This document shows positions 29,043 to 50,491 of a stretch of DNA of 64,000 nucleotides, one piece after another; positions within the stretch are counted from its first letter, which is position 1; each line of letters begins with the position of its first letter. Source of the DNA: Nemertoderma westbladi (taxonomy: Eukaryota; Animalia; Xenacoelomorpha); contig JAUCBJ010007635.1 in NCBI GenBank assembly GCA_032718475.1, positions 62,001-126,000 on the forward strand, written 5' to 3'. The position numbers and the translations under genes are program-made. A model generated the notes under the pieces. The model was not told where the DNA came from and ran no database searches. It worked only from the letters and a program-made list of their open reading frames with translations.

Positions 29043-32000
29043 TTAAGGTGCCCCTTCTAGAAGACAGCATTTACCTACTGCTCTCCTGTAGGTTTTTCTG
29101 TCTTTCGCACCTATCTTTCCACCTATCCGCACTTCTACCGATCGGACTCTTCCGTCCTCGTCGGAGTAGGTGCCTACAACTCTCGCCAACCGCCATTGGT
29201 TGTTGATGATAGTATCATCCGTGACGATTACGAGATCTCCCTCTCTCAACTCCCTGTTTGGCTTCCTCCAATTGCTTCGCTTATGGAGCGTGGGTAGGTA
29301 TTCTTCTACCCACCTCCTCCAATACTCTGTGCTAATTGCTTTAGCTACTTTCCAACTTTGCCGGGAGTGTATATCATCTGGGTCTACACCCCGCATATCT
29401 ATGGTCGCTGGCCTTTCCATCAGGAAATGGCTAGGCGTCAACACGTCTAGTGACTCAGGGTCATCATTCTCCGGGTATAGCGGTCTGCTATTAATGATCC
29501 CCTCGCACTTTGCAAGTACCGTCCGTAAGACGTCTTCAGTGACCATGTGGGTATTCATCAGTTTCGTCATTAGACGTTTCGAACTGCCCACCAGTCTTTC
29601 GACGCATCCTAGTGTATGTGGTGCATACGGCGTCCGTCTCTCCCACTTCACTTGTCGTCTTCTCATGGCCGCCCTGACTTCTTCTCCCTCCAAGATGTTT
29701 AAGGCCTCTGCCATCTCACTCTCTGCACCCACAAAGTTGGTGCCGTTGTCGCTATATATCACTGCGATCGTCCCACCTTTGCGGTCCCTAAACCTTTCTA
29801 AGGCGTTAATGAAGGCTGATGCGGTTGCATCTTGGGCGAGTTCTATCCCTACCGCCCGCGTATTGTTGCATACGAAGATAATACCGTAGCGTTTCTCCGT
29901 GTGTCGCATCACCTTGATCTTTATCGGCCCGAACATGTCCACACCGCAATGTGTAAATGGCGGGTCGTGCTGTCTTACCCTACTCGCCGGTAGTGGCGCC
30001 ATCTCCTGTACGGCTCGTTCCTTCTTCGCTCGTCGGCAGGTCTGGCACTGCCCCACTACCGCTTTGACCTTCTTCCTTAGTTGTTTGACCCAATAGGTCC
30101 TCCTTATCTCTGTGAGGGTTCGGTTGGTGCCCCCATGCAGTATCGATTTGTGGGAGTCCCATATGATCTGGTGGACTATAGGCGATCCTGTGGGAATGAT
30201 GATGGGTTTCGGTGGCACGACTATACTGTTGTTATATCCCACCCTTGAATTCATTACTAGGATCCCATCCTCGTTGAGTTGTGGTGACAGCGTGATCAAC
30301 TCGCTATCCCGTCGGAGATGTTGTTGGTTACCGACACGTTCCACCTCGTCGCCATAGTTCTTGCGTTGTTCATAGCGGATCACTGCCTTGGCCGCTCCTT
30401 CCAGATCTATGGTTGTCCTGGCCTTCTTGTCCTTGCCGACTCCCGCAAGGAAATTCCCAAAGGCTCTCCAGTACGCCACTAGTTTCTTGGTCTTATACCA
30501 ACTAGAACTGTAGCTGAGGAGTTTATCCGTTGGGTTATCGCACAGTTCCCTTCCTGGTTGCACGTCCCTGATCTCCCTCACCATCTGGGAGTATATCTCT
30601 TCTCCCTCTGAATCTCCTTCTCCTTCTGATATTGGTTCCGAGCCCGGGTCCACCTTCCTCATCGGCGGCCAGGCCTCTCTATCGCTCAGAAATTGTGGCC
30701 CATGTTGCCACAATACTTCCTTCTTCAGGAAAGTGTGGCGTTCCACGCCCCTCGACAGTAAGTCCGCTGGGTTCTCATCTGTTGGGCAGTAGTGCCACCT
30801 TTCCAGTTCTGTGCTCGCCCTTATTTCGTCCACTCTATTCGCGACGAATATCGGGTATCTCGTCTTTTCGTTGTGTAGCCAACCAAGCACTACCATGGAG
30901 TCCGTCCAGTAGTGTGTCTCCACTATGTTGGGAATTGTATCCACTAGGTAGGCTGTGGCTCTAACTCCTAGTCTCGCAGCTGTCAATTCTAACTTGGGAA
31001 CAGATGCTGAATCTGGCGGCGTTGACTTAGCTTTGCTAAAGGCTAGTCTGGGCTTGTGAGGCCCCTCTCGTTGTACTAAATAGAGTGCCGCTCCGTATGC
31101 CTCTAACGACGCGTCGGAGAACATATGTAGGTCCAGATTCGTCATGTTCCCGTCCGGGAAATACACTCGCGGCATGTTGTATGTTCCCATCCTCTCCAAG
31201 TCTCCTGTCCATTTGCTCCACTGTTTCTTAATGTCTTCAGGTACCTCTACGTCCCACTCATCCTTCAACTTATATACTCTCTTGAGTATCTGTTTCCCCG
31301 TGACTAGTAATGGGGATGCTAGGCCTAAGGGATCGTATATCCTTGCTATATACGATACGTAACCCCTCTTCGTATGGGTGTCTGCACCCTCCTGGCTCAG
31401 CTGATACTTCAGTTCGTCTGTTTTCCTATCCCATACGATTCCCAACGCCTTCTGCTGGGATTCCGTTCTCTTAATCGCCATGTCCTGCCCTTTGGCTGTT
31501 GTAGGGTTGTCCATGGTCGATTCTGGTTTCTTGTCCTCTATTTCCCTGATAAATTCTTCTGAACTGGATTGGAATTTGGTCAGGTTGAAGCCGGATCCTC
31601 TCAGGATGTCGCGAACCTCGCGCCCTGTTTCCAGTATTTCCTCAACCGTATTTCCAGACTCCATGCCGTCGTCTACGTAGAAACCGCGTTTGATCATGTC
31701 GACGGCCCTACTGCTATATCTATCCTCCTTCCCCTTTACCGTGTCTCTCACTGCCATAGTCGTCGTAAATGAGGACGACTTGGCCCCCATGTTTTGTACT
31801 ACCATCTTATATGTCGGTATTATAGGCGGTTCTTCTTCTCCGTTATACCATAAGAAGCGTTGACTGTCGCTATCTTCCTCTGTTACTCGGACTTGGTTGA
31901 ACATGCCTTCTATGTCACACGTGAAGGCGTGTTTCCCATTCCTAAATCTAAGTAGTACTTCTATGCCCGAATTGTATATGTTTGGGCCCTCTAGTAGGTA

Positions 32001-35000
32001 ATCGTTTAAGCATTTTCCGTCGGTCTTTGCCGATGCATCGACTACCATCCTAAGTTTACCTTTCTTTGGGTCTAAAGCTACGTGGAGTGGCAGGTAGTAT
32101 GTCCTGTCCGTGTTCGGTTCGTCGACCGGTAACTCCACGGCCCATCCTTTCTCGACGTACTTCTTAATGGTTTTGTGAATGTACTCGTTCTTCTCGGGGC
32201 TCCGTTGTAGTGTTTGTTTCAGCTTGCGGAGTCTCGTGAGTACCATCCCTCTATTATCGGGTAGCGGTATCTTCGGCAGTTTCCACACCATTCCTATTGT
32301 ATACCGCCCCTCATCACATGTCATGGATTCCTCCACACTTTGTAGAGCCTGCTTGTCTTCTACCGAGGTCCCGACTCCGGTCTCTTTCAGTCCCTCGAAG
32401 TCCTGCCTGAGCAGTCTTTTAAGCTGCTCCTCTGCTCCCTCGTCACCCATTTCCTGCATTGTTCCTGCGAACATGCATCCTGATGTCTCCGACATCCTGA
32501 ATGGTATCTTGCTCTTAATTGGACCACTTAGCGTCCACCCGAATGGCGTTAGTATGGCCACCGGGTCGCTCTGCTTGTCTTCGCCGAAGACCGTTTGCAT
32601 TCTCTCGTGGGCTGTTGGGCAGTCCATGCCTACTATGATGGATACCTTCCTAACGTCCACGTCCGGGATTGAGAAGTCAATGTTGTCCAGGAATTTGTAT
32701 TGCTCGACCTCGATGTTGGTTGGCCGCCTGGCATTGATGTTTATTGACTCTATTACTTGGATGGGGTCGATGGTTGCCCCATAATCGCATCCTGGTGCCA
32801 CTGCTGCAATTGCGCACCGTCCTGTCCTCATCTCTAGGATCTCGTCTTTGCTAGAGATGGTTGTCACCGCCATCCTGCTTGGCCTCGTTCTCAACCCTAT
32901 TTCTTCGGCTACCCATTCCTCAACTAATGTGAAGGCAGCTCCACTATCAACCAGCATTAGTGTTGTTACTGATCGATTGCCTTCTCCGATCACTCGCACT
33001 GGTACTACTCCAAGTAGCACTGTTCCTCTCTTCTTCGCCCCTATTGTGCTTGTTGCCATCGTCTGGCCTCTCCTTTGGCCAAACTTGACCGGCTTCTCCT
33101 GGCATTCCCTGGCCTTGTGTCCACTCTTCACACATCGCGAGCAGATTTTATTGCTCGACGCGTAATCTATCTGGTCTTGCCTCGGTAGCGCCTGCCAGTA
33201 CCTGCAGTTCATGGTTTTGTGAAGCGCATTTGCGTGTAACTGGCACTTGCTCTTTGGGTCGTAGCCCTCTTTATACAATGCGTTGCGTATCGCAGTTATG
33301 TTTGTACCAAAGTCCCTACTATTCTTATTGACTGGGTTTGACCTACTGGACGTACTGGGGTTATATTTATTCATGTTGTTATTGTTCCCCTGTCCGTCCC
33401 TTGATGTCGTCCTATCTTCGCTTGCCTGTGGACTTGCAGTCCCCTGCGTCGCTGCATATGGCAATGATTGCCTGAGTCTCGGTAACGCGTTCGATGTATT
33501 GTGCTCTGGTTTGGGCCTGTAGTGATCTGTCTTTGGTCCCTTTCCCAGGCTATCTTCACTATAGACTGGGTCCGTTATTAGTTCAGCCTCGTAATTTAAG
33601 AAGTTTGACATTTCTTCTAAACCTGGTTCCGCACCCTTCTTGTCTCGGGTGGAGAAAGCGATCTTCCTCCATTTGTTGCGCAGCCAGCTCGGTAGTGCCT
33701 GCGCTATCGTGGTGATGTTATTGGACGCGTTGAGTTCGTATGGTGCGTCTAGCGTCTTCAGCACGATCAACGCCTTCTCGACTTTGTTAGCAAACGTCTT
33801 AATGCTAACGGGATTATCCTGTAGGCCACCCGATGTTATGCCTCTCAGCGTCTGCCTGATGATCTTGGCCGGGTGCCCGTATTCCCTGTCCAGTGCCCGC
33901 CATGCTGTCGTGAAGCCGCCCTCTATTCCTTGGTATTGCCTCACGATATCGTATGCTGGGCCTCCCGTGTACACTTGTAGATACTTTAGGCACTCCGCCT
34001 GCGTCAAGTTTTTTGTTAGTATTTCGTTACTATACATTCGCCGAAACTGCAAGTATTCTTCCGGCCTGCTCCCATCGAATTTGAACGGTTCCACGGGTGG
34101 TAATTCGATCCTTGTTTTCAACGCATCGATCAACGTGGCCATCCCCATTGCCTGCGCTTCTAATGGATTCGACGGATGCTGTATAGTTTCCCCTGTCTGG
34201 TGCGGTTCGTCCGTCCTATTTCTTAATCTTCTCTGACTCGGATATGTCATCGGGGGTAGCGGCCCCCTCCATATGTCTGTATCACACGACCTGTTTTCGT
34301 CCAAGGGTTTCATTGTTCTTGCTACCATCGGGGTATATTGTTGATATTGTGATGGGGGAATGTCACCCTGTCCCCCCCCCACCGGTATGTCTGGTACTGG
34401 GGTTGATGTTAATACGTTGGGGCCCATGCACCTATCCGCGATAATTCCCCCTTCCCCTGGGTATATGTTATGTCCCTGCATGCTGTAGTCATACTGCTGT
34501 GCTGGTACCGGTATAGGCCTATCAGCTTCTGGCCTACTCGCCGGTATGTATTCCGCGACTTCCGGGTTTAATCCCGTTGTCCGCGCCATCCTATCGCCTA
34601 CATTGCCTCTCTCAGTATGGCCTACGGTATGTGCAGTAAGACCTACAGTATGCCCTACAGTCTGCATGTGTTGCTCGGGATCGAAGTTTATTCTTCTCGA
34701 ATAATCCTCCCCGCGGCTACCGTATTCTCGATCGGTAGATACATTCCGTCGGAAAGTTTCTCTTCGGCCCCCCTCTCTACTGTTCTCTTCTTCGTACCGG
34801 TACATCGCGTACCCCTCTCTCGGCGTGTAATGCGTCTCATCGGATCGCATCCCTCCGGGGCGACGGCAATCTCCCGGAGTCCGACCCCACTGACTCTCCG
34901 TTCTCATCTCGATTACCGACGGCTCGCTGTCCGTCCTCGCTCTTCTATCGTTTGCGGCGATACTTCTACTACTCCCTTCCTCTCTTCTCCTATCAGTGGA

Positions 35001-37541
35001 ATATTCCCGCTCACGAGATCTCTCGTCGACCTCCCGGTTAAACCCCACTGTTCTTCTTTCCTCCTCTGATCGGGCTCGACGCTCCGTCTGCCCTCCCGCG
35101 ACGTCAACCTGTCTTTCTCTGCTCGATCGTACGTCGCTGGGGATACTCGCAATCCCCCTATTACTTTCCGTCGCCGGTTGTTGCGGTTTACCTTGTTCGG
35201 CCCTCGCATTGTCCGCTGACGGCTGTGGGACACTCTCTGCCCCCCCCCTCTCGCCGCTAACTCTCTGTTGTGGGGCCCTCGTAGCCCCCCCCCACTCGCT
35301 ACATCTAACTTCGCTACCTCTCTCCCCGCCATTATATACCTCTCTAGTCGACACATCAACCCTACTACAGTCTGGTCTATTTACCCCCGCCTCTCCCTCT
35401 GCTATTGCGTGGCCTTCCAGGCCCTCTACTCCCTGCCTACCAACTACGTGGCCTACCAGGCCCTCTGCTCCTTGTCTACTAACTACGTGGCCTACCAGGC
35501 CCTCTTCTCTTTGTCTACTAACTACGTGGCCTACCAGGCCCTCTTCCGGCTGGTTATGTAGGCCCGACGTGTTCACATTAATAGCACCCATATTGGAAAC
35601 GGAATTAATTTGCTCGTTCGAAACAAAACCATTCGCATTATTCTGCGCGACTACGTTATCTGAATTATTTTGTAAATTCGGGCATGGATCATTATTTAAA
35701 TTATTTGGATTATTTTGTGTAATCGCGTTATTTAGATTATTTAGTAAGTTCGAATTTGGGTTATTATTTTGATTATTTAAATTATTTTGCGTAATTACAT
35801 TAATATTAGAATTATTTTCTACATTAATACTAGGATTGTTCTGATTTAAATTTAAATTACTACCACTAGGTAAAGTATTTCCTGCAATAAAGGTTTGATT
35901 AAAGTTATCCCATACGGTACTATTAATATCAACAACTTCTACTGTACCATCATTATTACCCCTCCCGCCCGTACGGTCACACCAGTTTTGGGTCTGTCGT
36001 GCGGTCCCTGTCAGTGGGGTATTAATAAACGTATCTAGGGCCCCCGGGTCCTCAAAAATACTCGAGCCGGCCCCGCTTGCAGACGGCGACGCTTGCGCCA
36101 GTCGCAGCTCGTGCGCCCGTCTAATCTTACGTTCCGCAAGCACACTTTGGTGTCTCTTTATTTTCTCTTGCTCTCGCTCAGCCTCTGCCCTTCTCTTCTC
36201 ACACTCCTGGGTGTCCCGACTGCCCGACTCTACTATACTCCTAGCGCTCTCCCTTCGTCTCGCCTCACGCTCTTTGCGTTCCTTTTCCCTTCTCGTCTCA
36301 TATTCCTTGCGTTCCTTTTCCCTTTTTGCCTCACATTCCTTGCGTTCCTTTTCCCTTTTTGCCTCACGTTCCCTGCATTCCCCGTCCTCCCTTTCCTCAC
36401 GCTCTCTGCGTTCCCTTTCCTCCCTTTCCTCACGCTCTCTGCACTCATTTTCCTCTATTTCGTCTCTCTCCCTAAGGCTTCTCAAAGCTCTTTCGACCCT
36501 TTCTCCGGTCTCCTTAATCAATTCCGCTTCCCTCATTAACCGCACTCTCCCCTCCTCTAACCGTTCCTCCATTTCCTTCTGACCTTGCTCTACCACGTTG
36601 AGACGGTATGCGGCACCTATCTCTCTCACCACTCTTCCTTTCGCGGAGGATGTAGCAGACTTATCGGTTGCGACGGACCCCCTCCGCCTTCCCGACCTAC
36701 TAACTTTCCCCCGCTTCCCGGAACTTTCTCCGACCGACGAGGCCGAATCCTCGTGGTTAACCTCGGATTCGCCCCCCTCAGGTCTCCTCCAACCCACTGG
36801 TTTTACTCCCCGGGCATCGACCAAGTATGGCCCTATGTACACTGGCGCTACGCTAGGTTCCATACTCCCACACTCCCATAGTTCAAACAGTTCGCCTGCA
36901 ATTCCCTTTGCTCTCTCCCCGGCTAGTTCTCTCTGCCCAAAACGTATCAGGTAATTTAAGTGTCTGTCCGACTCACCTAGTCGCTTTCTCAGTCTCACCT
37001 CGTCTACCTTCGCCCCTTGCTTCTTGGCGTCGTTTATCAGCTTCCGGGTCGCGTTGTAGGCCCGTCGAAGTCGGTCAGAAACCCCGACGTCCTCGTCGCC
37101 GACCTCTCCTCCGTCCCTCCGGGTCCGACGTCGTACCGGCGGCTCCACCGTCGCCGTTCCGGTGGGCCGCTCGTCGCCCTCGGCCTGTAGCTGGCCGGCG
37201 ACATCGGTACCGATCTCTCCTCCGTCTCTTCGCGTCCGGCGTCGCACCGTCGGCCCCACCGTCGCCGTTTCGGTGGGCCGCTCGTCGCCCTCGGCCGGTA
37301 GCTGGCCGGCGACATCGGCGCGCCGTTCTCCGTTCCGTGTCGACTCATCTCCTTCTCCCTCCGTCTCGCTCTCCCTTTCCCTCTGCTCGACTTCGGGTTC
37401 CAGACCCTCCTCGTTCTGGACTTCCGGTTCGCCCGTTATCGATGGCTCCGGTGTCGTGGGCCTGTATCGCTTGGTCACGGCCTCGCGGATCGTTAGGTCT
37501 TCGTCCGGGGTCCGCGGCGGTGTCTCGCCCGATTCACTCAT
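29043..37541 (-). CDS. BEL/Pao Gag-Pol polyprotein (2832 aa) with a low-complexity N-terminal extension of about 1100 aa
   Basis: Gag LPPVEPFKFDG; knuckles CQLHANALHKTMNC and CSRCVKSGHKAREC; protease LVDSGAAFT; RT FTCDIEGMF...FYVDDG; RNase H LHMFSDAS...WTDSMVV...ENPADLLSRG; integrase H-H-CQTC, GVDMFGP, YSDNGTNF, GCVERLV. Confidence 0.96.
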   Translation of the reverse strand: MSESGETPPRTPDEDLTIREAVTKRYRPTTPEPSITGEPEVQNEEGLEPEVEQRERESETEGEGDESTRNGERRADVAGQLPAEGDERPTETATVGPTVRRRTRRDGGEIGTDVAGQLQAEGDERPTGTATVEPPVRRRTRRDGGEVGDEDVGVSDRLRRAYNATRKLINDAKKQGAKVDEVRLRKRLGESDRHLNYLIRFGQRELAGERAKGIAGELFELWECGSMEPSVAPVYIGPYLVDARGVKPVGWRRPEGGESEVNHEDSASSVGESSGKRGKVSRSGRRRGSVATDKSATSSAKGRVVREIGAAYRLNVVEQGQKEMEERLEEGRVRLMREAELIKETGERVERALRSLRERDEIEENECREREEREERERREREEREDGECREREAKREKERKECEAKREKERKEYETRREKERKEREARRRESARSIVESGSRDTQECEKRRAEAEREQEKIKRHQSVLAERKIRRAHELRLAQASPSASGAGSSIFEDPGALDTFINTPLTGTARQTQNWCDRTGGRGNNDGTVEVVDINSTVWDNFNQTFIAGNTLPSGSNLNLNQNNPSINVENNSNINVITQNNLNNQNNNPNSNLLNNLNNAITQNNPNNLNNDPCPNLQNNSDNVVAQNNANGFVSNEQINSVSNMGAINVNTSGLHNQPEEGLVGHVVSRQREEGLVGHVVSRQGAEGLVGHVVGRQGVEGLEGHAIAEGEAGVNRPDCSRVDVSTREVYNGGERGSEVRCSEWGGATRAPQQRVSGERGGAESVPQPSADNARAEQGKPQQPATESNRGIASIPSDVRSSRERQVDVAGGQTERRARSEEERRTVGFNREVDERSREREYSTDRRREEGSSRSIAANDRRARTDSEPSVIEMRTESQWGRTPGDCRRPGGMRSDETHYTPREGYAMYRYEEENSREGGRRETFRRNVSTDREYGSRGEDYSRRINFDPEQHMQTVGHTVGLTAHTVGHTERGNVGDRMARTTGLNPEVAEYIPASRPEADRPIPVPAQQYDYSMQGHNIYPGEGGIIADRCMGPNVLTSTPVPDIPVGGGQGDIPPSQYQQYTPMVARTMKPLDENRSCDTDIWRGPLPPMTYPSQRRLRNRTDEPHQTGETIQHPSNPLEAQAMGMATLIDALKTRIELPPVEPFKFDGSRPEEYLQFRRMYSNEILTKNLTQAECLKYLQVYTGGPAYDIVRQYQGIEGGFTTAWRALDREYGHPAKIIRQTLRGITSGGLQDNPVSIKTFANKVEKALIVLKTLDAPYELNASNNITTIAQALPSWLRNKWRKIAFSTRDKKGAEPGLEEMSNFLNYEAELITDPVYSEDSLGKGPKTDHYRPKPEHNTSNALPRLRQSLPYAATQGTASPQASEDRTTSRDGQGNNNNMNKYNPSTSSRSNPVNKNSRDFGTNITAIRNALYKEGYDPKSKCQLHANALHKTMNCRYWQALPRQDQIDYASSNKICSRCVKSGHKARECQEKPVKFGQRRGQTMATSTIGAKKRGTVLLGVVPVRVIGEGNRSVTTLMLVDSGAAFTLVEEWVAEEIGLRTRPSRMAVTTISSKDEILEMRTGRCAIAAVAPGCDYGATIDPIQVIESININARRPTNIEVEQYKFLDNIDFSIPDVDVRKVSIIVGMDCPTAHERMQTVFGEDKQSDPVAILTPFGWTLSGPIKSKIPFRMSETSGCMFAGTMQEMGDEGAEEQLKRLLRQDFEGLKETGVGTSVEDKQALQSVEESMTCDEGRYTIGMVWKLPKIPLPDNRGMVLTRLRKLKQTLQRSPEKNEYIHKTIKKYVEKGWAVELPVDEPNTDRTYYLPLHVALDPKKGKLRMVVDASAKTDGKCLNDYLLEGPNIYNSGIEVLLRFRNGKHAFTCDIEGMFNQVRVTEEDSDSQRFLWYNGEEEPPIIPTYKMVVQNMGAKSSSFTTTMAVRDTVKGKEDRYSSRAVDMIKRGFYVDDGMESGNTVEEILETGREVRDILRGSGFNLTKFQSSSEEFIREIEDKKPESTMDNPTTAKGQDMAIKRTESQQKALGIVWDRKTDELKYQLSQEGADTHTKRGYVSYIARIYDPLGLASPLLVTGKQILKRVYKLKDEWDVEVPEDIKKQWSKWTGDLERMGTYNMPRVYFPDGNMTNLDLHMFSDASLEAYGAALYLVQREGPHKPRLAFSKAKSTPPDSASVPKLELTAARLGVRATAYLVDTIPNIVETHYWTDSMVVLGWLHNEKTRYPIFVANRVDEIRASTELERWHYCPTDENPADLLSRGVERHTFLKKEVLWQHGPQFLSDREAWPPMRKVDPGSEPISEGEGDSEGEEIYSQMVREIRDVQPGRELCDNPTDKLLSYSSSWYKTKKLVAYWRAFGNFLAGVGKDKKARTTIDLEGAAKAVIRYEQRKNYGDEVERVGNQQHLRRDSELITLSPQLNEDGILVMNSRVGYNNSIVVPPKPIIIPTGSPIVHQIIWDSHKSILHGGTNRTLTEIRRTYWVKQLRKKVKAVVGQCQTCRRAKKERAVQEMAPLPASRVRQHDPPFTHCGVDMFGPIKIKVMRHTEKRYGIIFVCNNTRAVGIELAQDATASAFINALERFRDRKGGTIAVIYSDNGTNFVGAESEMAEALNILEGEEVRAAMRRRQVKWERRTPYAPHTLGCVERLVGSSKRLMTKLMNTHMVTEDVLRTVLAKCEGIINSRPLYPENDDPESLDVLTPSHFLMERPATIDMRGVDPDDIHSRQSWKVAKAISTEYWRRWVEEYLPTLHKRSNWRKPNRELREGDLVIVTDDTIINNQWRLARVVGTYSDEDGRVRSVEVRIGGKIGAKDRKTYRRAVGKCCLLEGAP

Positions 37542-37610
37542 CTCGTCTGCTCGGTGGAGTTCGACTAGCTAGCGTGGGGTTCTTTGAGTTTAACTAGGGC
37601 GGCAGCTCGG

Positions 37611-37619
37611 TTTAGTTAC
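37611..37619 (-). promoter_or_regulatory. Non-tRNA primer-binding position of element A (GTAACTAAA), complementary to an LTR-internal 9-mer
   Basis: Minus strand reads ...GTCACA|GTAACTAAACCG with no TGG. On the same strand the LTR contains TTTAGTTAC (37794-37786; also 23978-23970). Confidence 0.6.
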
Positions 37620-38157
37620 TGTGACGGGATCCAAGAGGGATCCCGATTTATCCGGTTGTGGTAATTTAGTCCACGCGTCCCCGCCGTGTGTAAGGGTGAA
37701 GTAAAGATAATTGAGTTCTGAAGTTCGGTGTATAATAGGAAGTTATAAGATATAGATATTGTGAATGTGTACAAGGCGGGATACGGTAACTAAAGTCCCG
37801 TGATCCCCTATCTAAACTAATTAACTATTATCCTACGCTAGCACTGCTACACTGAGATGACTGAATAGGTAATATTACTGCCAAGTGGCTATACTGCACG
37901 GTTGGCCTAATTACTACCTAATCGATGCCTTGCCCCCCTCTGATTGGTTGTTACCCTTGTTGGCGCCCCGTGGAGTATTCCCGTTCACTCCACCTGTTCT
38001 CTGGGTTAGGGGTTTGGCCCCTGACCCTCCATTGTGTGCTTCCTTCCCATTCTTATTGGGATGGCGCGAGTTGGTTAATTACCCAATCTCGCGGCTCCCA
38101 ATATTGCTTATCGGCTAATAACTTTATGGGGTGTTGGCGGGATTGAATAAGCTAACA
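37620..38157 (-). repeat. 5' LTR of element A (538 bp)
   Basis: TGTGACGGGATCC...GAATAAGCTAACA, upstream of the gag ATG (37541) on the minus strand. Confidence 0.96.
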
Positions 38158-38377: not shown

Positions 38378-38441
38378 AGACGGCGTCAAGACGCCGTTAA
38401 GCAAGTTGGAAGTCATCAATCCAATGTAAATTCCATCAACA

Positions 38442-38695
38442 AGCTGTCATTGGTGTTATTTTACCATTGCGCCTATGGCGTTTTTTCGTTTATGTCTATT
38501 TTTCGAGCCCACAGCTCATGGACGAAATAGCGGAACATACCAGGGACCTTAGAATCGCGGTATCTAGCCACTGTGAAAATTTCATCAAAATCGTTAGAGT
38601 AGTTTTGGCTGTAGATCAGTAAGTCAGCCAGCCAGCCAGTCAATCAATCAGCCAACAATTCTTACAGTAATCAAGTCCTACGACTTGCTAACTAG
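38442..38695 (+). mobile_element. Short non-autonomous Helitron-like repeat, copy 2 (uninterrupted)
   Basis: AGCTGTCATTGGTG...microsatellite...hairpin CAAGTC-CTAC-GACTTG, then CTAACTAG. A hairpin plus CTAG end is the Helitron 3' signature. The repeat itself is certain; the class is inferred. Confidence 0.6.
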
Positions 38696-40105
38696 TGACG
38701 GGCCTAGCGTATACGCCCGATAAGGAACCGACTTTTTATTTTAATTAAAAGAGACAACGAGAATTAGTATAGAACTAATAATTATGTAAAAATACAATCA
38801 TATTTCATACAATAATTATTAATAAATTTGATCTATTATTAGTTGCTCAATTCTAGAACAAAATCGACCTGCAACTAGTGAAGACCTCGTTTTGGAATTT
38901 CGAAACCACGCTGGTGCGATGCGCGATATCGTGTTTGGTTAATAAATTGAAAACTCCATCAGTTCATGTGCAACCAGTAATAAGAAATCGCGATAAATGT
39001 AATTAAATAAAAATTAATCTAGAAAAATTTTCCTCAAAAAGTATGAAGTCTTGGCATTGGTGACGCGAAACTAGGCTATTGAGATTCAGGATATTGCGTT
39101 TAATATAAAAATCGAAAACGCTATCGAATTCCGTAAAGGCATTAATAAAATACTGCAACTTTTTTGAATTTGTAAAATTCTAGAACTAGAAAAAATTAAT
39201 TTTTGAACGGCGGCGCTGTTTGGGGTTTCGAAACATGGATAGGCTGAAAGAGGACATCGAATTAAGTTGAAAAATGAAAACCCCATCGAATTTGGACCAA
39301 GCGTTCCGGAGTTATAGCGGATCGAAAAAAATTGACCCCCCCCAGTCGCCAAAAATTTACAGTAATTTAAAATTTTGCAAAAAAAATTTTTTGCGTTATT
39401 TTTGATGGCGAATCGATTGGCAGTACTGGCTACGAAAAATTTTTTTTTGAAATTTTAGGTCAGAAAAAAAAACTTATTACTTACGTATATTTTTAAAAAG
39501 ATTTCATGTCTTTGCATATGGTCAGAGAATGATCCAACTCTGTAACTTGGCAATCGCTCAAATCCATTCAGCTGAATGGCACAGTAGAGTAAACTAAAGT
39601 AAATTCCCAATACAATGTTCTGAAGGGGATACTGACAGAGAGTAATCCAACAATAAAACACTTTGCAATAATGTTGGCATTAATGTAGCCAAGAAGTGAT
39701 TTTTATATTTCAAACTATAATGTTAGTCTTAGCCTTACAGAGTATCAGTATAAGGCTGAGTAAACATTCCACCTTATAAGCATACAGCCTCCACAGTATT
39801 AATGTTGGCATTAATGTAGCCGATACACTGTATACCTAATAGTCATTCAGCAGGGGGAAGAGTTATTCAGCTGAGGCGGTAATAGATTGCAAACTAAACC
39901 AACCAGTTGGCAGCCTCATCGATTTATACTAAGCCTGTGTAGAACCACAAACTAAATCAACCAGTTAATATTTGCTTTGACAGAGAGTGCAGGGCCTAAA
40001 CAAACAGTATGGGTGTACTAAGTACAATAATCTTGGCAACCTCATCGATTTATACTAAGCCTTGTGTAGAAATGCATTACATAAGCCATTTTTCATCAGG
40101 ACACC

Positions 40106-40142
40106 AGCTGTCATTGGTGTTATTTTACCATTGCGCCTAAGG
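40106..40142 (+). repeat. Helitron-like repeat copy 3, left part (continues at 63132 after element B)
   Basis: AGCTGTCATTGGTGTTATTTTACCATTGCGCCTAAGG matches 38442-38478. Confidence 0.9.
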
Positions 40143-41374
40143 TGTAAAAGCCTTTGCTGAATTGCCCCGTTATTTTTATTATCTTTTACATTAAAATACT
40201 CTGTAGTTGATTTAATAAGTGTAAGAGACCGTATTATTGCTGTATCAGTGTTTTTAGAGGATCTAAGACTTATTTCCTCCGTATGTGTACTGTGAAAGGT
40301 ATATTTTATGATTCTATGGCAATTCGTGACGCAAAGGGGTGATAGCTACTCTTGAACAGTAGTTACTATGACTACGGTTAACAGCTGACATTCATACGTG
40401 TTGATTTCCTTTGTTCTACGGCGTCTCTCAGTTCAGTCAGCCAATGAGAGCGTTTTTGTGGCTCCTTGTAGAGAAAATTTCCGAGAAATGACGCAATGCC
40501 TATGTGCAGTGTTTACATTCAGTCCTGAGCCTAAGAGAGAACGGCTTGGAAGTATTTTTGTGCTATACTGTTTTTTAGTCGTACACTAGTAGGTTTAATT
40601 ATAAAGGGCATATATCCTTTAACATGCCTATGTATCATACATCCTGACTGCTGAAACATTGCAAACTCGTAACAATCAGTGTTCAGTTGTTGTTTTATAC
40701 TGCTATTTACTGTCAGTTCTTCATAATATGGTTGATGAATTATTATATTTGGAATAACGATAAATAACCCCGCAACCCAATATTCTTGATATACCGAAGG
40801 TAAGAGAGAAAGGTTACCAATAACGATTGTGACTTATGTTAAAGTGGTTTGAAGTGAATCTAATGTTATTTGATAGACCCTACAGGGTCAGCCTGTGTTC
40901 CTTTTATATGTGACTAAAATCAGTGAAGATTGGCAGATTAGTGTGCAGTATTGTGCAGCATTGTGTATGAGCGAGTCTGTTAAAGAAGCAATTCCTAAAG
41001 AATGCGCCATATATGTGAATTATAATTGAGCCATATCGTTGTGAGTAGTTTAAGTCATAACTCTGTTTATATAGATAAAGCGCCACGTCCTAAAGGAACT
41101 GTTAATATTACCAAAGGTGAATAATATTGTCAGAGATTATATAATACTGTCAGTCGAATAATACATTAGGCTTACATAGCAATAAAAATTAAACCGTCGA
41201 ACCCAATCTCCCGGGAATATCCAGCGGGTGAATGGTCGCGCACGGATTGGTTTCGACTAGTGTAGTGAATCAAGTACTTGTCATAGACTAAAAAACAGAT
41301 TTAATATCTAGAAGACCTGAATCCAAGATCTTAATTTGGTGGGTTAAACTGCCAAAGGTCTGAAAGCGCGAACA
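40143..41374 (+). repeat. 5' LTR of element B (1232 bp)
   Basis: TGTAAAAGCC...AAAGCGCGAACA. TATAAA at 40600-40605. Only a few visible differences from the 3' copy. Confidence 0.97.
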
Positions 41375-41386
41375 TTAAAGGATATA
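41375..41386 (+). promoter_or_regulatory. Non-tRNA primer-binding position of element B (TTAAAGGATATA), complementary to an LTR-internal 12-mer
   Basis: ...GAACA|TTAAAGGATATAGC with no TGG. The exact reverse complement TATATCCTTTAA is at 40611-40622 and 62378-62389. Confidence 0.7.
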
Positions 41387-41651
41387 GCTTCTTTATTGCA
41401 GTAAGCAATAAAGTCGAAAGTACCGGTCGACCGGTAACCAGTAGGCCTGACTGCCTGATCATCCGGACCGGTACCTATTTCCGTATAAGTACAGCAGTAT
41501 TATTCGATTTGATTATATATGCCGGTAGGTCTTAATAATTAATCGGGGACGCCTGGTTTTTATTGGGATTTTACTTAGGCCTATTTCTGTCAGTTTTATT
41601 TGTTTGTAGGCAAGTATTGAACAGAAGGCGTGTAAACCTTATCAGATTGTA

Positions 41652-42225
41652 CAGACAATTTGTAGGCTGAGCTGTTGTCTGATTGCTGTTAAGTCCGAAC
41701 GAATTGCAGTGTGTGTAGAGCACCTGTCCGATTAAGTACGATTAGGCAGTAGGGGCAGTGAATACTGTAAGGTAAACCCCCAATTAAAGAATAAGTCGCA
41801 CTACTGGGTTAGAGCGCATACTCCCTAATCATTTCGGAGTCTGCATGTCCTGTGGTTTATTTAGGCTTGAGAGTAGTCTGCCATCGTTTGGTCTGTACTT
41901 TGTTTGTGTAAGTCTGTACAGGTAGCGTATAATTTATTTAGATAATTTGTAGGCTGGATAGTTGTCTGGCTGTTATTAGGTCTGAACGGATTGCCGCGTG
42001 TGTAGAGCATCTGTCCGATTAAGTACGATTAGGCAGTAGGGGCAGTGAATACTGTAAGGTAAACCCCCAACAAAAGAATAAGTCGCACTACTGGGTTAGA
42101 GCGCATACTCCCTAATCATTTCTGAGTCTGCATATACCGTAGTTTGTTTAGGCTTGATAGTAGTCTGTCAGTGTTCGGTCTGTATTTTGTTTGAGTAGTT
42201 TGTACGCGTAGCGTAATATTTATTA
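41652..42225. repeat. Two tandem direct repeats of about 288 bp in the 5' leader of element B
   Basis: AGACAATTTGTAGGCTG... (41652) recurs as AGATAATTTGTAGGCTG... (41940), with a long shared core CTGTCCGATTAAGTACGATTAGGCAGTAGGGGCAGTG...GAGCGCATACTCCCTAATCATTT. Confidence 0.9.
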
Positions 42226-43159
42226 TTCAGAGTTTATGCGATTATCCGCAACATTCATTCCCCAAGTTTGTTCCTACAGTAATTGTGTTTGTTATACATA
42301 CCGCTATAGTTAAATTAACCCCGGTACTACACGGGCTGCTCGGCGTAGGTAAAGACTGGTGATTTTGTGCATCGGTCACTCCAGCAGATGCCGTGGTTCT
42401 TTTAGCTGTTCAAGTATATTTAACTACTGATTATCTGTTGTACAAGTACTCGTACCTAATTTAGGGTTTAGTGTACAGTACTTTCCGAAGTAATTATTGT
42501 AGGCATTATATTTGTGTTGTAAAGTGGTTGATAGGCACATTGGATAGCTCTATTAACTTCTAGGTAGGGACAATCCGTGATACATAACGTTGCACCTATA
42601 GCGATACGGCTATAGGTCGTCAGGCGGTGGCATTTTCCTATCTAGACAACGCAGTGTATTTACTACTACTTATTATTTCAAACACCGTAATACCCTGTCC
42701 GTGTAAAAACCAGTTTTCTAACCCTTTGTTAGACTGGTTTGTAGACTTCTTGTAAAATTACCCTAAAAATTCGTATTTGTGTTTTTGTAAATTTTTGTGT
42801 TTATTTAGAGATTGTAATCTCAACCCGATTTGTACGTAATTTGTAGTATTAAGTAACTTAGGTAAATTAGTATTATTTGTTTTAGTGTCCTGTACGTAAC
42901 ACTTCACTGAAAGCGCACCGCTTTGTGTAGTGATTACTCCCCAGAAATAATAACATTTATTTCAACATTGACGAAACCCATTAAAACGGGTATAAATATA
43001 TTATAAATCAAATCCAACGATTTATAAATAGTAGGCCTACCATCTAACCATTAGGTCTCAATATCAGTTGGATTACTGCTTAAATAACGGTAATAAAGTA
43101 AGTTAAAGTAACCAAGTAACCCTTTAAATTCAGAAATTCAGTTATTTTTAAAATAATTG

Positions 43160-43456
43160 ATATACCGGTATTTACGATAGGCCTATTATCTTATTTCTAT
43201 AAATCTAGGCTGAAATTATACCGGTACTTGTAATTAATTCTATTTCAGAATTATATATCCTACAAACTGAAAGCTGTATACCGGTATTCCAGATAAGCCT
43301 ATTATATATTTGTATATATTTGTGCTAAAATTATACCGGTATCCTGTGATAAACCTAGTCTGTGATAATACTTATATAGTTATATATACTATAAGTATAC
43401 CGGTATTCTAATATATTATATATATATCAAGCTACACTGAGTAGCAGTACCGGTAA
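43160..43456. repeat. Degenerate array of about 57-bp period with six TACCGGTA palindromes upstream of gag
   Basis: TACCGGTA at about 43163, 43219, 43279, 43334, 43398 and 43448 in an AT-rich background. Confidence 0.75.
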
Positions 43457-43545
43457 TTGATTACTAGGCTAGCAATTAATACTGAGTTACTAGACTTGCT
43501 TAGACTGTAATATAGCAGTAGGCATTCAACTGTACATACCTAGTC

Positions 43546-46500
43546 ATGTCTGATACTAAACAGAACCTGTCAGACAGTTTATTAGATGTAACTATCTGCG
43601 ACTCAGATAGAGACGTACAACAGTCTGGTCGTAAATCCAGTTCACCTCCCACTGTGAGGAAGGTCATCCCTCCAGTAGTAATAACAGAACCTAGGCTAGT
43701 CCAACATCGTAGGTCTATCATAGGCACCCGGGCTCAGGTGAAGCGGGACAAACAAGCAGCGGAACAGCAACAACCCGCTAGTCAAGAACTTATTCCTCAG
43801 CGGCCCAGCAGCTCCAGTAGTGATGATACTGTAGAGTTGACACCCGAGCGCGGAGCAGAGATGACGGATGCGGTTTATACGGATCCCCTTCTCATCCTTC
43901 CTGCAGCCGTGCTCGCTGAGTTATTAATAGCGGTGGAAGAACACCAGATTGATTGGGCGAGAAGTCAGCGCTCAACGAGAGATAGTTATGCGGGGTATAC
44001 GAGTGAAGAACTGAAGTCTATTGTCGAGTCGCAATGGAACTTCCCCGGACCCGGACTCCCGTTTGATTTATCAGAAGCTGCCTGGGAAGACATACACCGG
44101 ATGGGAGTAGCCAAGGAAACCATCGATCCAGCTGTGTGGAAGAGGTCCGCAGCCGGATACGCACAGGGATTCTTCAGCTCTATGGAGCGAGTTGAAAGAC
44201 AACTGTTTCAACAACCTCAAGGACCTCAAGAGCAGGGATCGCTGCTTTATCAAGTTAGAGAAAGAGTTCTGCGGATTAGGCTAATCTTATCCGCCTTTGA
44301 GGAGGCTTCTAAACGAAGACAAGACACGTCGTTGCAAGTTGCCGTGAAGACTTGGTTTCAACGGGTGAGTCGCCAGGTTCAAGGAGCAGCTCAGTGGAAA
44401 GCTCAGTTGGAGGAGCGCTCAACCCATGGAGAATCAACAGACGCTACTTTTTCCCAAGTGGAAAGTGAAGCGACGGCAGAGAAACCACATAAGAAGGATG
44501 CCATTGATATCTATCTGTCAGACTATCAGCGTTTTGTGGGAGATGAAGAGTTGAGGAGAAGGCTAGAGGGACTTAGCCCTAATAGCGAAGGAGCCAAACT
44601 TGTGTTAGATGCGATTGATGTGGATAGGTTAGCGGCGAACCAAGCTAAATTCGATGAACAACTCCGCATCGTTAGAGAACAAGAAGAACAAGTAAAGAAA
44701 AAACGTATAGAAGACAGAAAGGCCGCAGCAAAAGCAGAGGCAGAGGCAAAAGCGGCAGCAGCAGAAGCAGCGGCAGAGGCAAAAGCAGCAGAAGCAGCGG
44801 CAGAGGTAAAAGCGGCAGCGGCAGAGGCAAAAGCGGCAGCAGCAGAAGCAGAACGGAAAGCGGCTGAAGAGATCGCCCAACTGGAGTTGGAAACGCTTCA
44901 AGAGAAGCAAGACGACTTCAGTAAACAGTTAACAGCTAGTAATATGCGGATGATGAATCGATCTACTCCCAAAAGACAGGGATATACATCATCTGAAGAA
45001 GGCGATACCACCGATACTGAAGGCAAAGGAAATAGATCTCGTCTAAGCAGACACAAAAGAACATTCCACCGGCAGAAATTGCCTGATTTGCCTCCAGCTG
45101 TTAGAAGGCAACTAAATAACACCAAAGTAGGTAGTACAGAGCCCGCAGACCAAATAATTAAAATAGAAAGACTCCCTACGATAGTAGATGAGCCTGAAAT
45201 AATTAGGCCTGTTCTTGAAATCACCCCTTCGGTGATAGACGCACATGTGCTCCCTGAAACTACCTCTAAATTCCCTCTGCATAGCACTAAGCTACCTGTG
45301 CCCCGCAGAACTGCCCAAGAGACAGTTCAGGTCCTGGACCCCGAGCGAAATATTCACAATTTGTCGCCCGTTGTCCCTCGTCCGCCCGCTACAACGTTGG
45401 CGACTCCCGCTTCGGCGGTCGAATGGGTGGACGAGAGACGGCGGGGGATGGATATCCTGCTCGGACAGATGCAGGAGACTGTCCAGCAGTTCAAGGGCAC
45501 AGTAAGGGAAAGTAGGCTAGAGTTGCAAGAAGTGCAGCAAAGTATCGCGCTAGAGCGCGATAAATTAGTAAACACCCAAAAGGGTATACCACCACCCTCT
45601 GTAACAATGTGTCAACCCGTTAGGTCTGAAGTATCTCATGCGCAAGGTGTGGAGCCTACACGCATTTATACTGCTAGCGAAGTAGAAACTCCTATAGTGA
45701 ACCCTATTAAGGGTAATTATAGACATGTTGATAATGATATCCCATATAGAACTGATCATAATCCGAGAAATTTATATACCGATAACTCGATATTAAATAG
45801 CACGATGGCCCAAGAAAGTTTTACGCGTCAAATGGCTAGAACCGAAGCCCGGCAAGCGGTAAAGGTTGGAGAGATCGTCAAGTTCAATGGAGATGAGATG
45901 AAGTGGTTACCTTTTAATGAATATTACAAAGATAACATACAGAACTCTGTACTATCTAATGGAGAAAAACTTAGATACCTCATCGAGTGCTTGGAAGGAT
46001 CTCCCAAGTTAATGGCGTTAAAGTTTATTGGACATCCAGACGGATTAAGACAAGTTTGGGATACACTAAACATCAGGTATGGTAATAGGACTAACATAGC
46101 TAGGTATTTATATGCGAAATTAATGGCGCCCCGAAAGTTTCTTAGCAGCGGGATTATAGAGTTTTCCGATGAGATTCAGGAGATCTGTAGACAACTAGAT
46201 TGGTTAGGTAAGTCTCATGAATACCAGAATTCTATGGTTGTAGGAGCCTTAGCATCTACTTTGCCCAAGGGTGGAGTAGGTACACGCTGGGACAAGAAGG
46301 TGTTATATATGATGGAACAACAACAACGAGACCCTACCATGACTGATCTCATGTCATTCTTAGATAGAGAAGTGAAATTACAGCTCCTAAGGCAGTCCAG
46401 AGAGAAGACATTGGAAAACAAGGTAAGTGAGAAACCCGTTTCTAGGAGAAGGGTAACACCAGTGTGTTATACCGACGACGGCGAAAGCCAAGTTTCTCAA

Positions 46501-46878
46501 GAAGAGGACAGCGGGAAAGACACTGAAAGATCTTACTATGTCAACAAAGCGTCAAAGGACGTAAGTAAATTTAAGTCTCGAACCAATGACAGGAGAGAAC
46601 AGGTTACTAAAACTCCTCCTACGTCTCCTAACAGAATTCACGGAAGAAAGCCCGAGGAAAGAACGAGAGTGTATAACCTTACCCAAGGTAAGGCGAGTAA
46701 CATCAAACCAAAATGTGCGCTGTGCGACAGGCCCCACCGTTTGAGTGTGTGTGCTGAATTCCTAAATCGTCGGTATGTTATACCGACGACGGTGAAAGCC
46801 AAACTTCCCAAGGAGAGGACAGCGGGAAAGACACTGACAGATCTTATTATGTCAATAAAATGCCTAAAGATCAGGTAA
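43546..46878 (+). CDS. BEL/Pao Gag of element B (frameshifted at its C-terminus)
   Basis: Ala/Glu/Lys coiled coil; Gag core EIVKFNGDEMKWLPF...KLRYLIECLEG...LNIRYGN; first knuckle CALCDRPHRLSVC; reads out of frame after about 46770. Confidence 0.85.
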   Translation: MSDTKQNLSDSLLDVTICDSDRDVQQSGRKSSSPPTVRKVIPPVVITEPRLVQHRRSIIGTRAQVKRDKQAAEQQQPASQELIPQRPSSSSSDDTVELTPERGAEMTDAVYTDPLLILPAAVLAELLIAVEEHQIDWARSQRSTRDSYAGYTSEELKSIVESQWNFPGPGLPFDLSEAAWEDIHRMGVAKETIDPAVWKRSAAGYAQGFFSSMERVERQLFQQPQGPQEQGSLLYQVRERVLRIRLILSAFEEASKRRQDTSLQVAVKTWFQRVSRQVQGAAQWKAQLEERSTHGESTDATFSQVESEATAEKPHKKDAIDIYLSDYQRFVGDEELRRRLEGLSPNSEGAKLVLDAIDVDRLAANQAKFDEQLRIVREQEEQVKKKRIEDRKAAAKAEAEAKAAAAEAAAEAKAAEAAAEVKAAAAEAKAAAAEAERKAAEEIAQLELETLQEKQDDFSKQLTASNMRMMNRSTPKRQGYTSSEEGDTTDTEGKGNRSRLSRHKRTFHRQKLPDLPPAVRRQLNNTKVGSTEPADQIIKIERLPTIVDEPEIIRPVLEITPSVIDAHVLPETTSKFPLHSTKLPVPRRTAQETVQVLDPERNIHNLSPVVPRPPATTLATPASAVEWVDERRRGMDILLGQMQETVQQFKGTVRESRLELQEVQQSIALERDKLVNTQKGIPPPSVTMCQPVRSEVSHAQGVEPTRIYTASEVETPIVNPIKGNYRHVDNDIPYRTDHNPRNLYTDNSILNSTMAQESFTRQMARTEARQAVKVGEIVKFNGDEMKWLPFNEYYKDNIQNSVLSNGEKLRYLIECLEGSPKLMALKFIGHPDGLRQVWDTLNIRYGNRTNIARYLYAKLMAPRKFLSSGIIEFSDEIQEICRQLDWLGKSHEYQNSMVVGALASTLPKGGVGTRWDKKVLYMMEQQQRDPTMTDLMSFLDREVKLQLLRQSREKTLENKVSEKPVSRRRVTPVCYTDDGESQVSQEEDSGKDTERSYYVNKASKDVSKFKSRTNDRREQVTKTPPTSPNRIHGRKPEERTRVYNLTQGKASNIKPKCALCDRPHRLSVCAEFLNRRYVIPTTVKAKLPKERTAGKTLTDLIMSIKCLKIR

Positions 46879-48767
46879 GTAAATCCGAGTCTCGACCCAA
46901 TGACAGAAGGGAACCGGTACAAAAAACCCTTCCTACGTCTCCTAAAAGAATTCAGGTGAGAAAGCCCGAGGAAAGAACAAGTGTGCACCACATAGCACAG
47001 GTTAAAGTAAGTAACATCAAGCCGAAATGTGTGCTGTGCGACGGGCCCCACCGTTTAAATGCGTGTGATAAATTCCTGAGGAAATCACTCGAGGATAGAC
47101 GTGAAGTCATGTGGAATAAGCGGTTGTGTTATAATTGCCTCAGACGAGGACACCAACGGCGAACCTGTAACTCCGACGCAAGGTGTGCAAAGTGCGGCGC
47201 AAAACATCATATCTTGTTGCACACGGAATTCGAACGAAACAGCTCGAGTCAGGTAAGTGAGTCCGAACTACATGTCCAATTCAGTGATGTGAACGACACT
47301 GATCAATCTGAGATGGAAGGATTCTATACGGACGAGTTCTCCGACCAAAACGAATCCTGTTACCTAATAAACACCACCGCAGTGTATCGAGCACTCATGT
47401 ATGAGAAAGACACAGACAGCGACCTTACCTTAACTACTTCCGATCAACAACCATCTTGGAAAGCGCCAACTTCCAATATAGGAATCCGAGAATTTCCTGT
47501 AGTCCAGTTACGGGTCCACGGACATCAGAATAGCTATATAGTGAGCGCCCTCCTGGACTCCGGTAGCACAGGAACATTCATCGATAAAGAGCTAGCCGAA
47601 AATATATTTGCTGGACAACCCAAGTTCCAAACTAAGCTCAACATGTCAGGCATTATGCAAGTTTGGAAATCTACAATAACAGCTGATTATTATGTCGGAG
47701 CGTTGTCCACCCCCCAGGACGAATTAGGAGAACACAGCATAAGGTCAGTGAAAATGGTGGCTATAAAGAACTTCGCTACTACTCAAGCAGACCTTTATGA
47801 TTGGGACGAGGATGAGAGCATCCAACATCTTAACATACCTCGATTCCAGACTGATTATCCTGGAGTGCAAATACTCATCGGCCAAAACGCGCATGAGGCG
47901 CTGGAGACATTAGAGAAACGACCTGCTCAACCGCAACCACTTCATACCTATGCGGTAAGAACTAGAGTAGGTTGGTACCTTACTGGACCTTCCCGTAGCA
48001 CGCTCAGAGAAAGACTGCTTCAAGATCGCGTCTGCCAGCGGAGTAAATGGGAAGATGATACTAGTGAGGGAGACGACCCAACTGAGGGAACACCATACTC
48101 CTCAGATAATGACGATATTAGCTCCAATTTAGATCAATGGAGATATTGCCCCAAGAAGTTTAATCCAGCGGACATCGCTTCCAGAGGAGTAACTCCTCAA
48201 GAACTGACAGATACTATGGACCGGTTAGGTGAACCCGACTTCCTGAGTAAGGAGAATGAATGGCCTCCCCATCTTACTCCGACTGAGATTAGACCAGCCA
48301 AGGGAGCGGAGAAAGTCGAACCTGAAACCCGGACGGGTGGATCGGAGTTATTTGAACCCGGGATAGATCTGTCGGTATTACATATTGCCAGGGACGACGC
48401 CGTGGATCTGGACCTCCCCACCGCGAGTGGACCCTTCATGAAGATCAAAGAGAGCGATTGGAGCTCTGGAACATCAGGCGTCTCGCAGGGACTCTCACCT
48501 CTCCTGCAGGGAGCGACGGACCACTATAGCTTCTGGAATCGGCTTTGTAACGCCGTCATATACTTAGAGCGATGTTTCTATCGTCACTATTCCAGGACGA
48601 AGAGGAAACCTGGAATTGTATTCGGGATGCAGCGACTCAATCACCCAGTCGGTCGTTTGTGTTTACCGGAAGGGAATGGAGGACTCTCCGGAAACTGTGG
48701 AAGGCAAGATTCTCTTCCCACGACCACCTCCCTAATCCTTCAAACATCTAGGGACTCCATAACGTAA
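46860..48767 (+). pseudogene. Gag knuckles + aspartic protease + remnant of deleted pol, element B
   Basis: CVLCDGPHRLNAC, CYNCLRRGHQRRTC, CAKCGAKHHILLH; protease LLDSGSTGT; TRVGWYLTGP is followed within about 50 aa by QWRYCPKKFNPADIASRG (end of RNase H region). No YxDD and no integrase DDE core. Confidence 0.88.
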
Positions 48768-49832: not shown

Positions 49833-50258
49833 TGTCATGACAACCAATATGTGACGTCATACAATATTGCGGTGGACGGGTGTTGTAATTAATTTAATAT
49901 CATTTAAATTGTTAACCGTGCACAATGTGTCGTCACCCTTATGTAATACTGTTTGTATAGTGACAACTCCACATTCTGTACACCACAACATTCAATATCA
50001 GACCGTTAATTAACAATTAATTAAGGTCATGTTGATGCCTATGTGAATACTACAGATAAAAAGGCTTTGCCAGGTTTGGCAGAATGCACTCACTATCTTC
50101 CAAGCTCTGTCACTGTACATACAGTAGGGGCTTATTTACATGTTTAGTACAGTAGATTATTCTTAAGTTAATATAATCAATTAAAGTCATCTTTCAATTC
50201 ACTTTCAATTCATGGAGAGCGGCAATAACTTGGGCTTACTTACGCTACTTCTATGACA
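49833..50258 (+). repeat. 5' LTR of element C
   Basis: Identical by eye to 56553-56978. Confidence 0.97.
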
Positions 50259-50276
50259 TGGCGCCCGATAAGGGGA
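50259..50276 (+). promoter_or_regulatory. tRNA primer-binding site of element C (tRNA-Lys-like)
   Basis: TGGCGCCCGATAAGGGGA directly after the LTR; resembles the tRNA-Lys PBS TGGCGCCCGAACAGGGAC. Confidence 0.85.
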
Positions 50277-50491
50277 ATCCGACAACATCCAACAAAAATA
50301 AATCCGGGTGAGTTCTTCAATTTAAATCACACCGCTGCTCTGTCATTTATTATTCATATCAACTTACCTGAGTATCTCTGTCTACAGTACCAGTACGTTA
50401 CAAGTAGGGTACTGGCAATCCAACTTCGAACGGTTTCTGTCTCCTTCTCTTTTCATTCAACCAGGGTTCTCCCACCGCGACCAATAACCGT

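Follow-up and report, generated by a model that had tools for sequence, protein, structure and literature searches.

Two BEL/Pao retrotransposons of Nemertoderma westbladi, elements A and B, probably prime reverse transcription without a tRNA, with a primer made from their own RNA. We consider such self-priming likely on the strength of sequence comparisons: the primer-binding site (PBS) of B matches a segment of its own long terminal repeat (LTR) beyond chance, the same signature is found in A, none is found in an element nested in B, C, and six of nine relatives carry a signature of this kind. How the primer is produced can be stated less firmly, and the evidence on its formation is weighed below.

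The window, by which we mean the whole stretch of 64,000 nucleotides that was analyzed, contains the three BEL/Pao elements 3' of about 23 kb of a 45-bp satellite. Element B (40143-63131, + strand, as are all features of B and C given here) is a young, non-autonomous BEL/Pao retrotransposon with LTRs that are 98.9% identical and a 5-bp target duplication, TAAGG. Its 5' LTR (40143-41374) is 1232 nt long, has TG...CA termini, and ends in ...ACA. The 3' LTR spans 61910-63131 and differs from the 5' LTR by four events, each downstream of 40883. A gag-like ORF with a DUF1759 match (43546-46878; Pfam E 1.8e-13) is followed by a second frame (46758-48767) with zinc knuckles, a protease-like region that matches BEL loci (best E 1.5e-23), and a short remnant of the RNase H end. 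An extra ORF of 1417 aa occupies 57578-61831. No reverse transcriptase (RT) or integrase was found in B outside the nested element C, and the long gag-pol at 50408-56173 belongs to C. Because an RNase H-end remnant is all that B has of the RT-RNase H-integrase segment, we classify it as a non-autonomous derivative. Its DUF1759 gag, related protease region, TG...CA LTRs, and 5-bp duplication are those of BEL/Pao elements, the Belpaoviridae. In contrast to the usual BEL/Pao elements of 4.2-10 kb, as given in the available text of a survey (PMC3118150), B is about 16 kb long even when C is left out of account; it has no RT or integrase, its extra ORF is not an env gene, and its PBS is not of the tRNA type.

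Several other features of the window were recorded. Where the gag and second frames of B overlap, a stretch of about 300 nt is duplicated (46462-47077), the copies being 82% identical, and the 2.2-kb leader of B contains two 287-nt direct repeats (41653-42224). The satellite (window positions 1-23000) is followed by a 227-aa open frame (23127-23810) that is truncated near the 3' LTR of A and has no Pfam match. The A 5' LTR and B both lie inside copies of one host repeat, 8-13 nt apart in register. The insertion point in this repeat is a small palindrome, CGCCT(A)xGGCG, and an empty copy is present between A and B (38158, 38431-38542, 40138-40142, 63132). A target preference shared by these two divergent BEL families is possible.

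The sequence TTAAAGGATATA begins at 41375, the first base past the 5' LTR of B. Its reverse complement is found at 40611-40622 and again at 62378-62389 in the 3' LTR, and nowhere else in the 64-kb window. An earlier note on this DNA had pointed out this perfect 12-nt complement (40611-40622 with 41375-41386), flush with the LTR, and our analysis confirmed it. The note had also reported that pairing continues past a 1-nt bulge. It does: the putative primer arm (40606-40622; second copy at 62373-62389) consists of the 12-nt core and, across a bulged A, GGGC, which includes two G-U pairs, so that 16 bp are formed in all with the PBS at 41375-41390. On its other side, the pairing ends exactly at the LTR boundary. 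The earlier estimate that such a match would arise by chance at about 7e-5 was too low by roughly 5-fold, since a Markov model gives 3.5e-4, but the match is still rare. In the composition-preserving shuffle test that the note had suggested, a complement of at least 12 nt arose in 6 of 20000 dinucleotide-shuffled versions of the LTR. Among about 2100 leader start positions, a 12-nt complement in the B LTR occurs at +1 only. The complement is thus beyond chance.

Three further candidates were set aside. A longer duplex that takes in ATAAAG would reach 21 bp with two bulges, but it is weak, as 73 of 1216 and 99 of 2088 controls do as well; inclusion of TATAAAG has a p value of only ~0.05, and the same bases are explained by a local hairpin at 41391-41413. 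A primer made by splicing was discarded for both B and A, in which the best junctions (7 and 8 nt) do not improve on the contiguous match. Finally, a tRNA half was considered as the primer: the B site starts like a half-tRNA-Lys site given in the accessible portion of PMC5445492 and diverges from it after five bases.

Element A (23806-38157, - strand) carries the same signature in different letters. It encodes an intact 2841-aa gag-pol and an 850-aa extra ORF (25049-27601), between which a tandem array (28076-28927) is located; its LTRs span 23806-24340 and 37620-38157 (the 5' LTR). The PBS of A starts at 37619, lacks TGG as in B, and is complementary from the first leader base to a 9-nt arm at 37786-37794 (- strand; 5' LTR positions 364-372). 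This match was reached in 71 of 20000 shuffles and is the best among about 1090 leader starts. Across gag and protease, A and B are 23% identical. Because A is no close relative of B, the covariation of site and arm is one between families and not within the family of B. Element C (49833-56978) is nested in B and is a very young complete element, with identical 426-nt LTRs, the duplication AGAAC, and an intact gag-pol. Both A and C show the BEL/Pao domain order of DUF1759 gag, Peptidase_A17, RT, integrase, and DUF5641. The C PBS, TGGCGCCCGA, is of the tRNA type, presumably that of tRNA-Lys, and finds only a 4-nt match in its own LTR.

Relatives from metagenomes extend the comparison. [quoted passage not shown] Six of the nine (L004, L009, L013, L040, L061, and L072), all with non-TGG sites, have a PBS complementary to a predicted GT-AG junction within the element's own LTR, with matches of 10-15 nt at offsets of 0-4 that were reached by 0-2 of 500 shuffles. 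In the remaining three, the site is of the TGG type and no junction match is present. Unlike these junction-type relatives, A and B have a contiguous arm for which no splicing is needed. A blind scan of nine loci, kept outside this count and including three windows that were too short, recovered two known cases and added L005 and L055 (11 nt, 0 of 20 shuffles); L011 was not significant in it, and a match in L078 was dismissed as a false local hairpin. The junctions of L055 and L072 are almost identical. In a tree built by a quick method (66 rows, 14 short ones dropped), A sits on a long branch, apart from the clade that unites most loci, and the TGG-type L058 falls among junction-type elements.

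TGG is the mark of a tRNA 3' end. If a host small RNA or tRNA fragment primed these elements, the LTR match would be a structural switch, for packaging or dimerization, or a product of chance. We regard this as improbable. It would accord with the shortness of the A match, only 9 nt, and with the folding predictions for B described below, in which the helix is unfavored in cis. It is opposed by the position of the match, which runs from the first base past the LTR in A and B and is offset by 0-4 in the six relatives, and by its absence where the site is of the TGG type. Further, no tRNA gene was found in the window, no Rfam family in 40100-43600, and no TGG within 179 nt of the LTR end in the B leader, where the first occurs at +180.

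Upstream of the arm, B has a CCAAT box (40439-40448, CCAAT at 40441), which we take to fit an NF-Y-like consensus, and, 80 nt farther on, a candidate initiator, ATTCAGTC (40516-40526), whose motif predicts a start at ~40521. The same CCAAT-(80-85 nt)-ATTCAGTC arrangement is present in A (209 to 294), likewise upstream of the arm. From this pair, transcription would be expected to begin ahead of the arm, by about 70 nt in A and 90 nt in B; given this spacing shared with A, the 12-mer would lie inside R. The TATAAA that the earlier note had placed close upstream of the 12-mer is indeed there, at 40600-40605, and may be either the TATA box of a downstream start or a variant poly(A) signal. Its context, TATAAAGGGC, looks like a true TATA box and is similar to the TATA of L072. 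If it were used, transcription would start near 40630 and the arm would fall outside the 5' end of the RNA. Motifs therefore give starts at ~40521 or ~40630, and none gives a start at 40606-40611.

Four of the six junction-type relatives have a TATA-like motif upstream: the junction lies ~110-125 nt past the predicted start in L013, L061, and L072, and at the start in L009. L004 and L040 have no TATA upstream of the junction. Because the distance is ~110-125 nt in three of the four, internal primers appear to be the rule. Two of these relatives, L013 (7.0 kb) and L072 (7.7 kb), are complete elements into which an extra ORF would not fit, and neither gave a match to one; the signature therefore does not depend on the product of such an ORF, a predicted exonuclease in A and B.

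These observations lead us to favor, at about even chances, a mechanism in which B primes with its own RNA after a cut predicted at 40622/40623, right behind the arm. Transcription would start upstream of the arm (CCAAT at 40441, initiator at ~40521), placing it ~90 nt inside R. The arm would anneal to 41375-41390, stacked on the hairpin at 41391-41413, and the RNase H of a helper element's RT would cut behind it, as in Tf1, releasing a capped primer of ~100 nt whose 3'-OH would be extended into U5. B would provide Gag, protease, and an exonuclease-knuckle protein, with RT and integrase supplied in trans. A non-priming mRNA may come from a second start downstream, directed by TATAAA at 40600, as with the alternative starts in Tf2. 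The exonuclease would be an accessory, for end polishing or for countering small RNAs, and not the primer maker. An upstream start with a Tf1-like cut is favored because relatives that lack the exonuclease also show the signature. It is further consistent with a complement at leader +1 beyond chance in A and B and absent in tRNA-primed C, with junction sites in six of nine relatives, mostly internal and including L013 and L072 without the extra ORF, and with the CCAAT-initiator pair common to A and B. Against it, short motifs are the basis of the initiator and CCAAT calls, and TATAAAGGGC resembles a TATA box. Moreover, the cut is known from Tf1, whose primer is at the extreme 5' end of the RNA, and the primer proposed here would carry a long 5' tail.

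Differences between the LTRs of A bear on the same mechanism. Sixteen positions differ, all within 303-468 of 538, whereas 1-302 and 469-538 are identical and no difference falls in 336-394, the arm region; the chance of such clustering is ~8e-7. The differences begin just past the initiator, and the cluster fits a U3/R border near 296-302. It fits a chimeric element as well, which is conceivable because A has no target duplication. That the differences may stem from chimerism, and that A is so distant from B, weakens the support that A gives to a cut behind the arm in B.

Additional evidence comes from runs X1-X3, which consist of contigs and whose RNA nature is a guess. One X1 contig differs from the B LTR by 8 changes in the 483 nt up to 40623, none of them in the 12-mer, and then by 19 changes and several gaps in 40624-40679; from 40695, it is again B-like. 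This border is directly behind the arm, at the point where a junction would be expected if a cut had been followed by a strand transfer from one variant to another. However, it is a single contig picked post hoc, and the border at 40623/40624 could equally be that of R and U5. No contig at 88% likeness covers 40480-40694, and no contig of X2 or X3 aligns to the B LTR region. Depth rises from ~15 to ~40 across 40695-40742, which is too coarse to place a start.

Predicted folding differs between the two elements. In A, the arm-PBS helix forms in cis with a probability of 0.6-0.85 for the predicted start, in keeping with a cut behind the arm. In B, the probability is 0.00 for starts at 40430, 40521, 40608, and 40611, which counts against this mechanism: in the full transcript, two 8-nt segments (40978-40985 and 41009-41016) are predicted to pair with the arm and cut site. 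Forcing the helix would cost 3.5-11.5 kcal/mol, the lowest value being that for a start at 40608. Fold predictions spanning 750 nt are unreliable, and Gag may act as a chaperone of a fold switch in B. For a B fragment ending at 40622, in contrast, the predicted energy of binding to the PBS is about -9 kcal/mol, and the duplex would directly abut the hairpin at 41391-41413; the release of such a fragment by a cut would suit the favored mechanism. This hairpin has 9 bp with pair probabilities of 0.94-1.0, hides an AATAAA, and competes with the ATAAAG extension of the duplex. The predicted failure of the B helix in cis makes a separate, short primer RNA somewhat more plausible.

Such a short RNA could also be made by polyadenylation and trimming. 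TATAAA can serve as a variant poly(A) signal, and it lies 17 nt before the CA (40623-40624) that directly follows the arm. An RNA started upstream would then end near this CA, as an LTR-only RNA of ~100 nt or as the genomic 3' end, and the exonuclease would trim its tail back to the duplex, so that it primes in trans like a tRNA. We give this route a minor share of the probability, well behind a cut behind the arm. A short RNA ending at 40622 would avoid the competing fold and sit on the PBS directly next to the hairpin; the route is also compatible with the X1 border as the R/U5 border, and it would employ the intact extra ORFs of A and B. On the other hand, A has no signal before its arm, and its candidates are ~120 nt behind it. 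In B, canonical AATAAA and ATTAAA signals are present at 41181 and 41188, and U5 would have to be 750 nt long. Relatives with the signature but no extra ORF argue against it too, and the exonuclease call consists of language-model features and motifs.

The extra ORFs of A and B are predicted to encode a 3'-5' exonuclease domain. In B, a putative DEDD-type 3'-5' exonuclease (~59630-60460) precedes CCHC knuckles (~60900-61090), and the 850-aa ORF of A is of the same predicted type. The two products align by BLASTP over the CCHC cluster (E 5e-7) and are 21% identical over the upstream domain. Atlas language-model features assign both to the PF01612 3'-5' exonucleases (0.93-0.94), and all 10 of the 10 best named matches are in this family or clan. 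For PF01612, there was no Pfam match, the best E in a PDB profile search was 0.44, and AlphaFold models (pLDDT 29) were unusable. The two-sequence alignment, at 21% identity, contains D-x-E, K-[IV]-G-S-A-x3-D, and Y-x3-E, which we take to be the acidic ExoI, ExoII, and ExoIII motifs, with E in the third where D is usual. Homolog searches returned no homologs of the extra ORFs apart from one low-complexity match, and none was found in the 78 BEL loci or in the viral contigs searched. In B, the exonuclease ORF has stayed open although pol was lost, a point in favor of trimming. A strong splice-donor-like motif occurs at 40800 in the B LTR and an acceptor/donor-like motif at 41400, in the loop of the hairpin behind the PBS; judged by sequence, these could yield a spliced mRNA for the extra ORF.

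A BEL/Pao lineage with a home-made tRNA substitute, in which a polyadenylated LTR RNA or genomic 3' end is trimmed by the element's own exonuclease to the PBS duplex and then primes, is a speculative proposal that we think doubtful. If true, exonuclease trimming would join tRNA and RNase H self-cleavage as a third way of priming and would give the exonuclease ORFs of LTR elements their first function.

The earlier note had suggested another form of trimming for the case that the TATA box is used, with the 12-mer absent from the RNA 5' end and the transcript tail trimmed back. In this scheme, RNA would start at ~40630, the 12-mer would be confined to the U3 at the 3' end, and a copy of the RNA would lose its poly(A) tail and R, down to the 12-mer. 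The underlying notion of self-priming without a tRNA gained support from A, from C as a control, and from six of nine relatives, and a 3'-5' exonuclease is predicted in the extra ORF. This particular scheme, by contrast, proved the weakest option and is very unlikely. Removal of ~580 nt plus all of R would be needed, so that a second RNA would be required for strand transfer. The good TATA match at 40600, the predicted exonuclease, and the failed cis fold of B speak for it. The changes in the X1 contig begin at 40624, ahead of the expected start; the best duplex takes in 40606-40609, directly behind TATAAA; the A arm is ~70 nt behind a TATA-like motif and initiator; and the primers of relatives are downstream of TATA. 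All four points speak against it.

The cut behind the arm that we prefer has its closest parallel in other retrotransposons. Self-priming has been proposed for a copia lineage, and it reportedly requires RNase H, as the title of one study has it. For the Tf1/sushi group of Ty3/gypsy elements, including Tf1, Tf2, and Tj1, it is described, and for the plant Tcn1 and TAR lineages it is predicted, in the accessible text of PMC4600332, PMC6317226, PMC5445492, PMC3601003, and PMC5443660. A and B resemble this group, as portrayed in the available parts of PMC4600332 and PMC6317226, in having no tRNA site, a PBS complementary to the LTR, and a primer that would come from the element's own transcript. 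Both have BEL/Pao polyproteins, however, and B is at most Tf1-like in its working, not a member. The primer of Tf1 is the first ~11 nt of the transcript, whereas in A and B the predicted position of the arm is internal, 70-100 nt into R and, in B, 750 nt from the PBS. The extra ORF for a predicted exonuclease is a further difference. In Tf2, according to the part of PMC5341516 available, a downstream start gives non-priming RNA alongside a priming-competent start. An exact Tf1 geometry in B, with a TATA-less start at 40606-40611 and the arm as the first 12-17 nt of the RNA, is very unlikely: the duplex length is that of Tf1-type primers, the forced helix would cost only 3.5 kcal/mol for a start at 40608, and the primer of L009 is at its TATA-predicted start, but B has neither a TATA nor an initiator for such a start, and the arm is 70-125 nt inside in A and three relatives.

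The gypsy-like lineages Juno and Vesta of bdelloid rotifers provide a parallel for the extra ORFs. By description in the accessible text (PMC5408684), they are LTR elements with an extra downstream ORF for a DEDD-type 3'-5' exonuclease. The ORFs of A and B differ from these DEDDy ORF3s in being much longer and in ending in CCHC knuckles. The available text of PMC5408684 and PMC6431247 draws no link between the rotifer ORF3s and priming, and the main text of the former contains neither "self-prim" nor "PBS." Surveys of BEL/Pao (PMC3118150, PMC554778, PMC8220671) make no mention of self-priming in their main text, while their supplements may list primer sites. We found no report of self-priming in BEL/Pao in the literature searched, the coverage of which excludes most subscription papers. 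What is new here is likely the combination of an intron-less internal arm with a putative exonuclease ORF in BEL/Pao.

Because the signature occurs in two divergent families and in six of nine relatives, our results suggest that tRNA-independent priming is common in BEL/Pao across animals and that the primer can sit inside R. Priming of this kind would free elements from the supply of tRNA and from silencing by tRNA fragments. Together, the arm and the predicted exonuclease ORF point to a role, open to testing, for accessory genes of a kind that has lacked an explanation.
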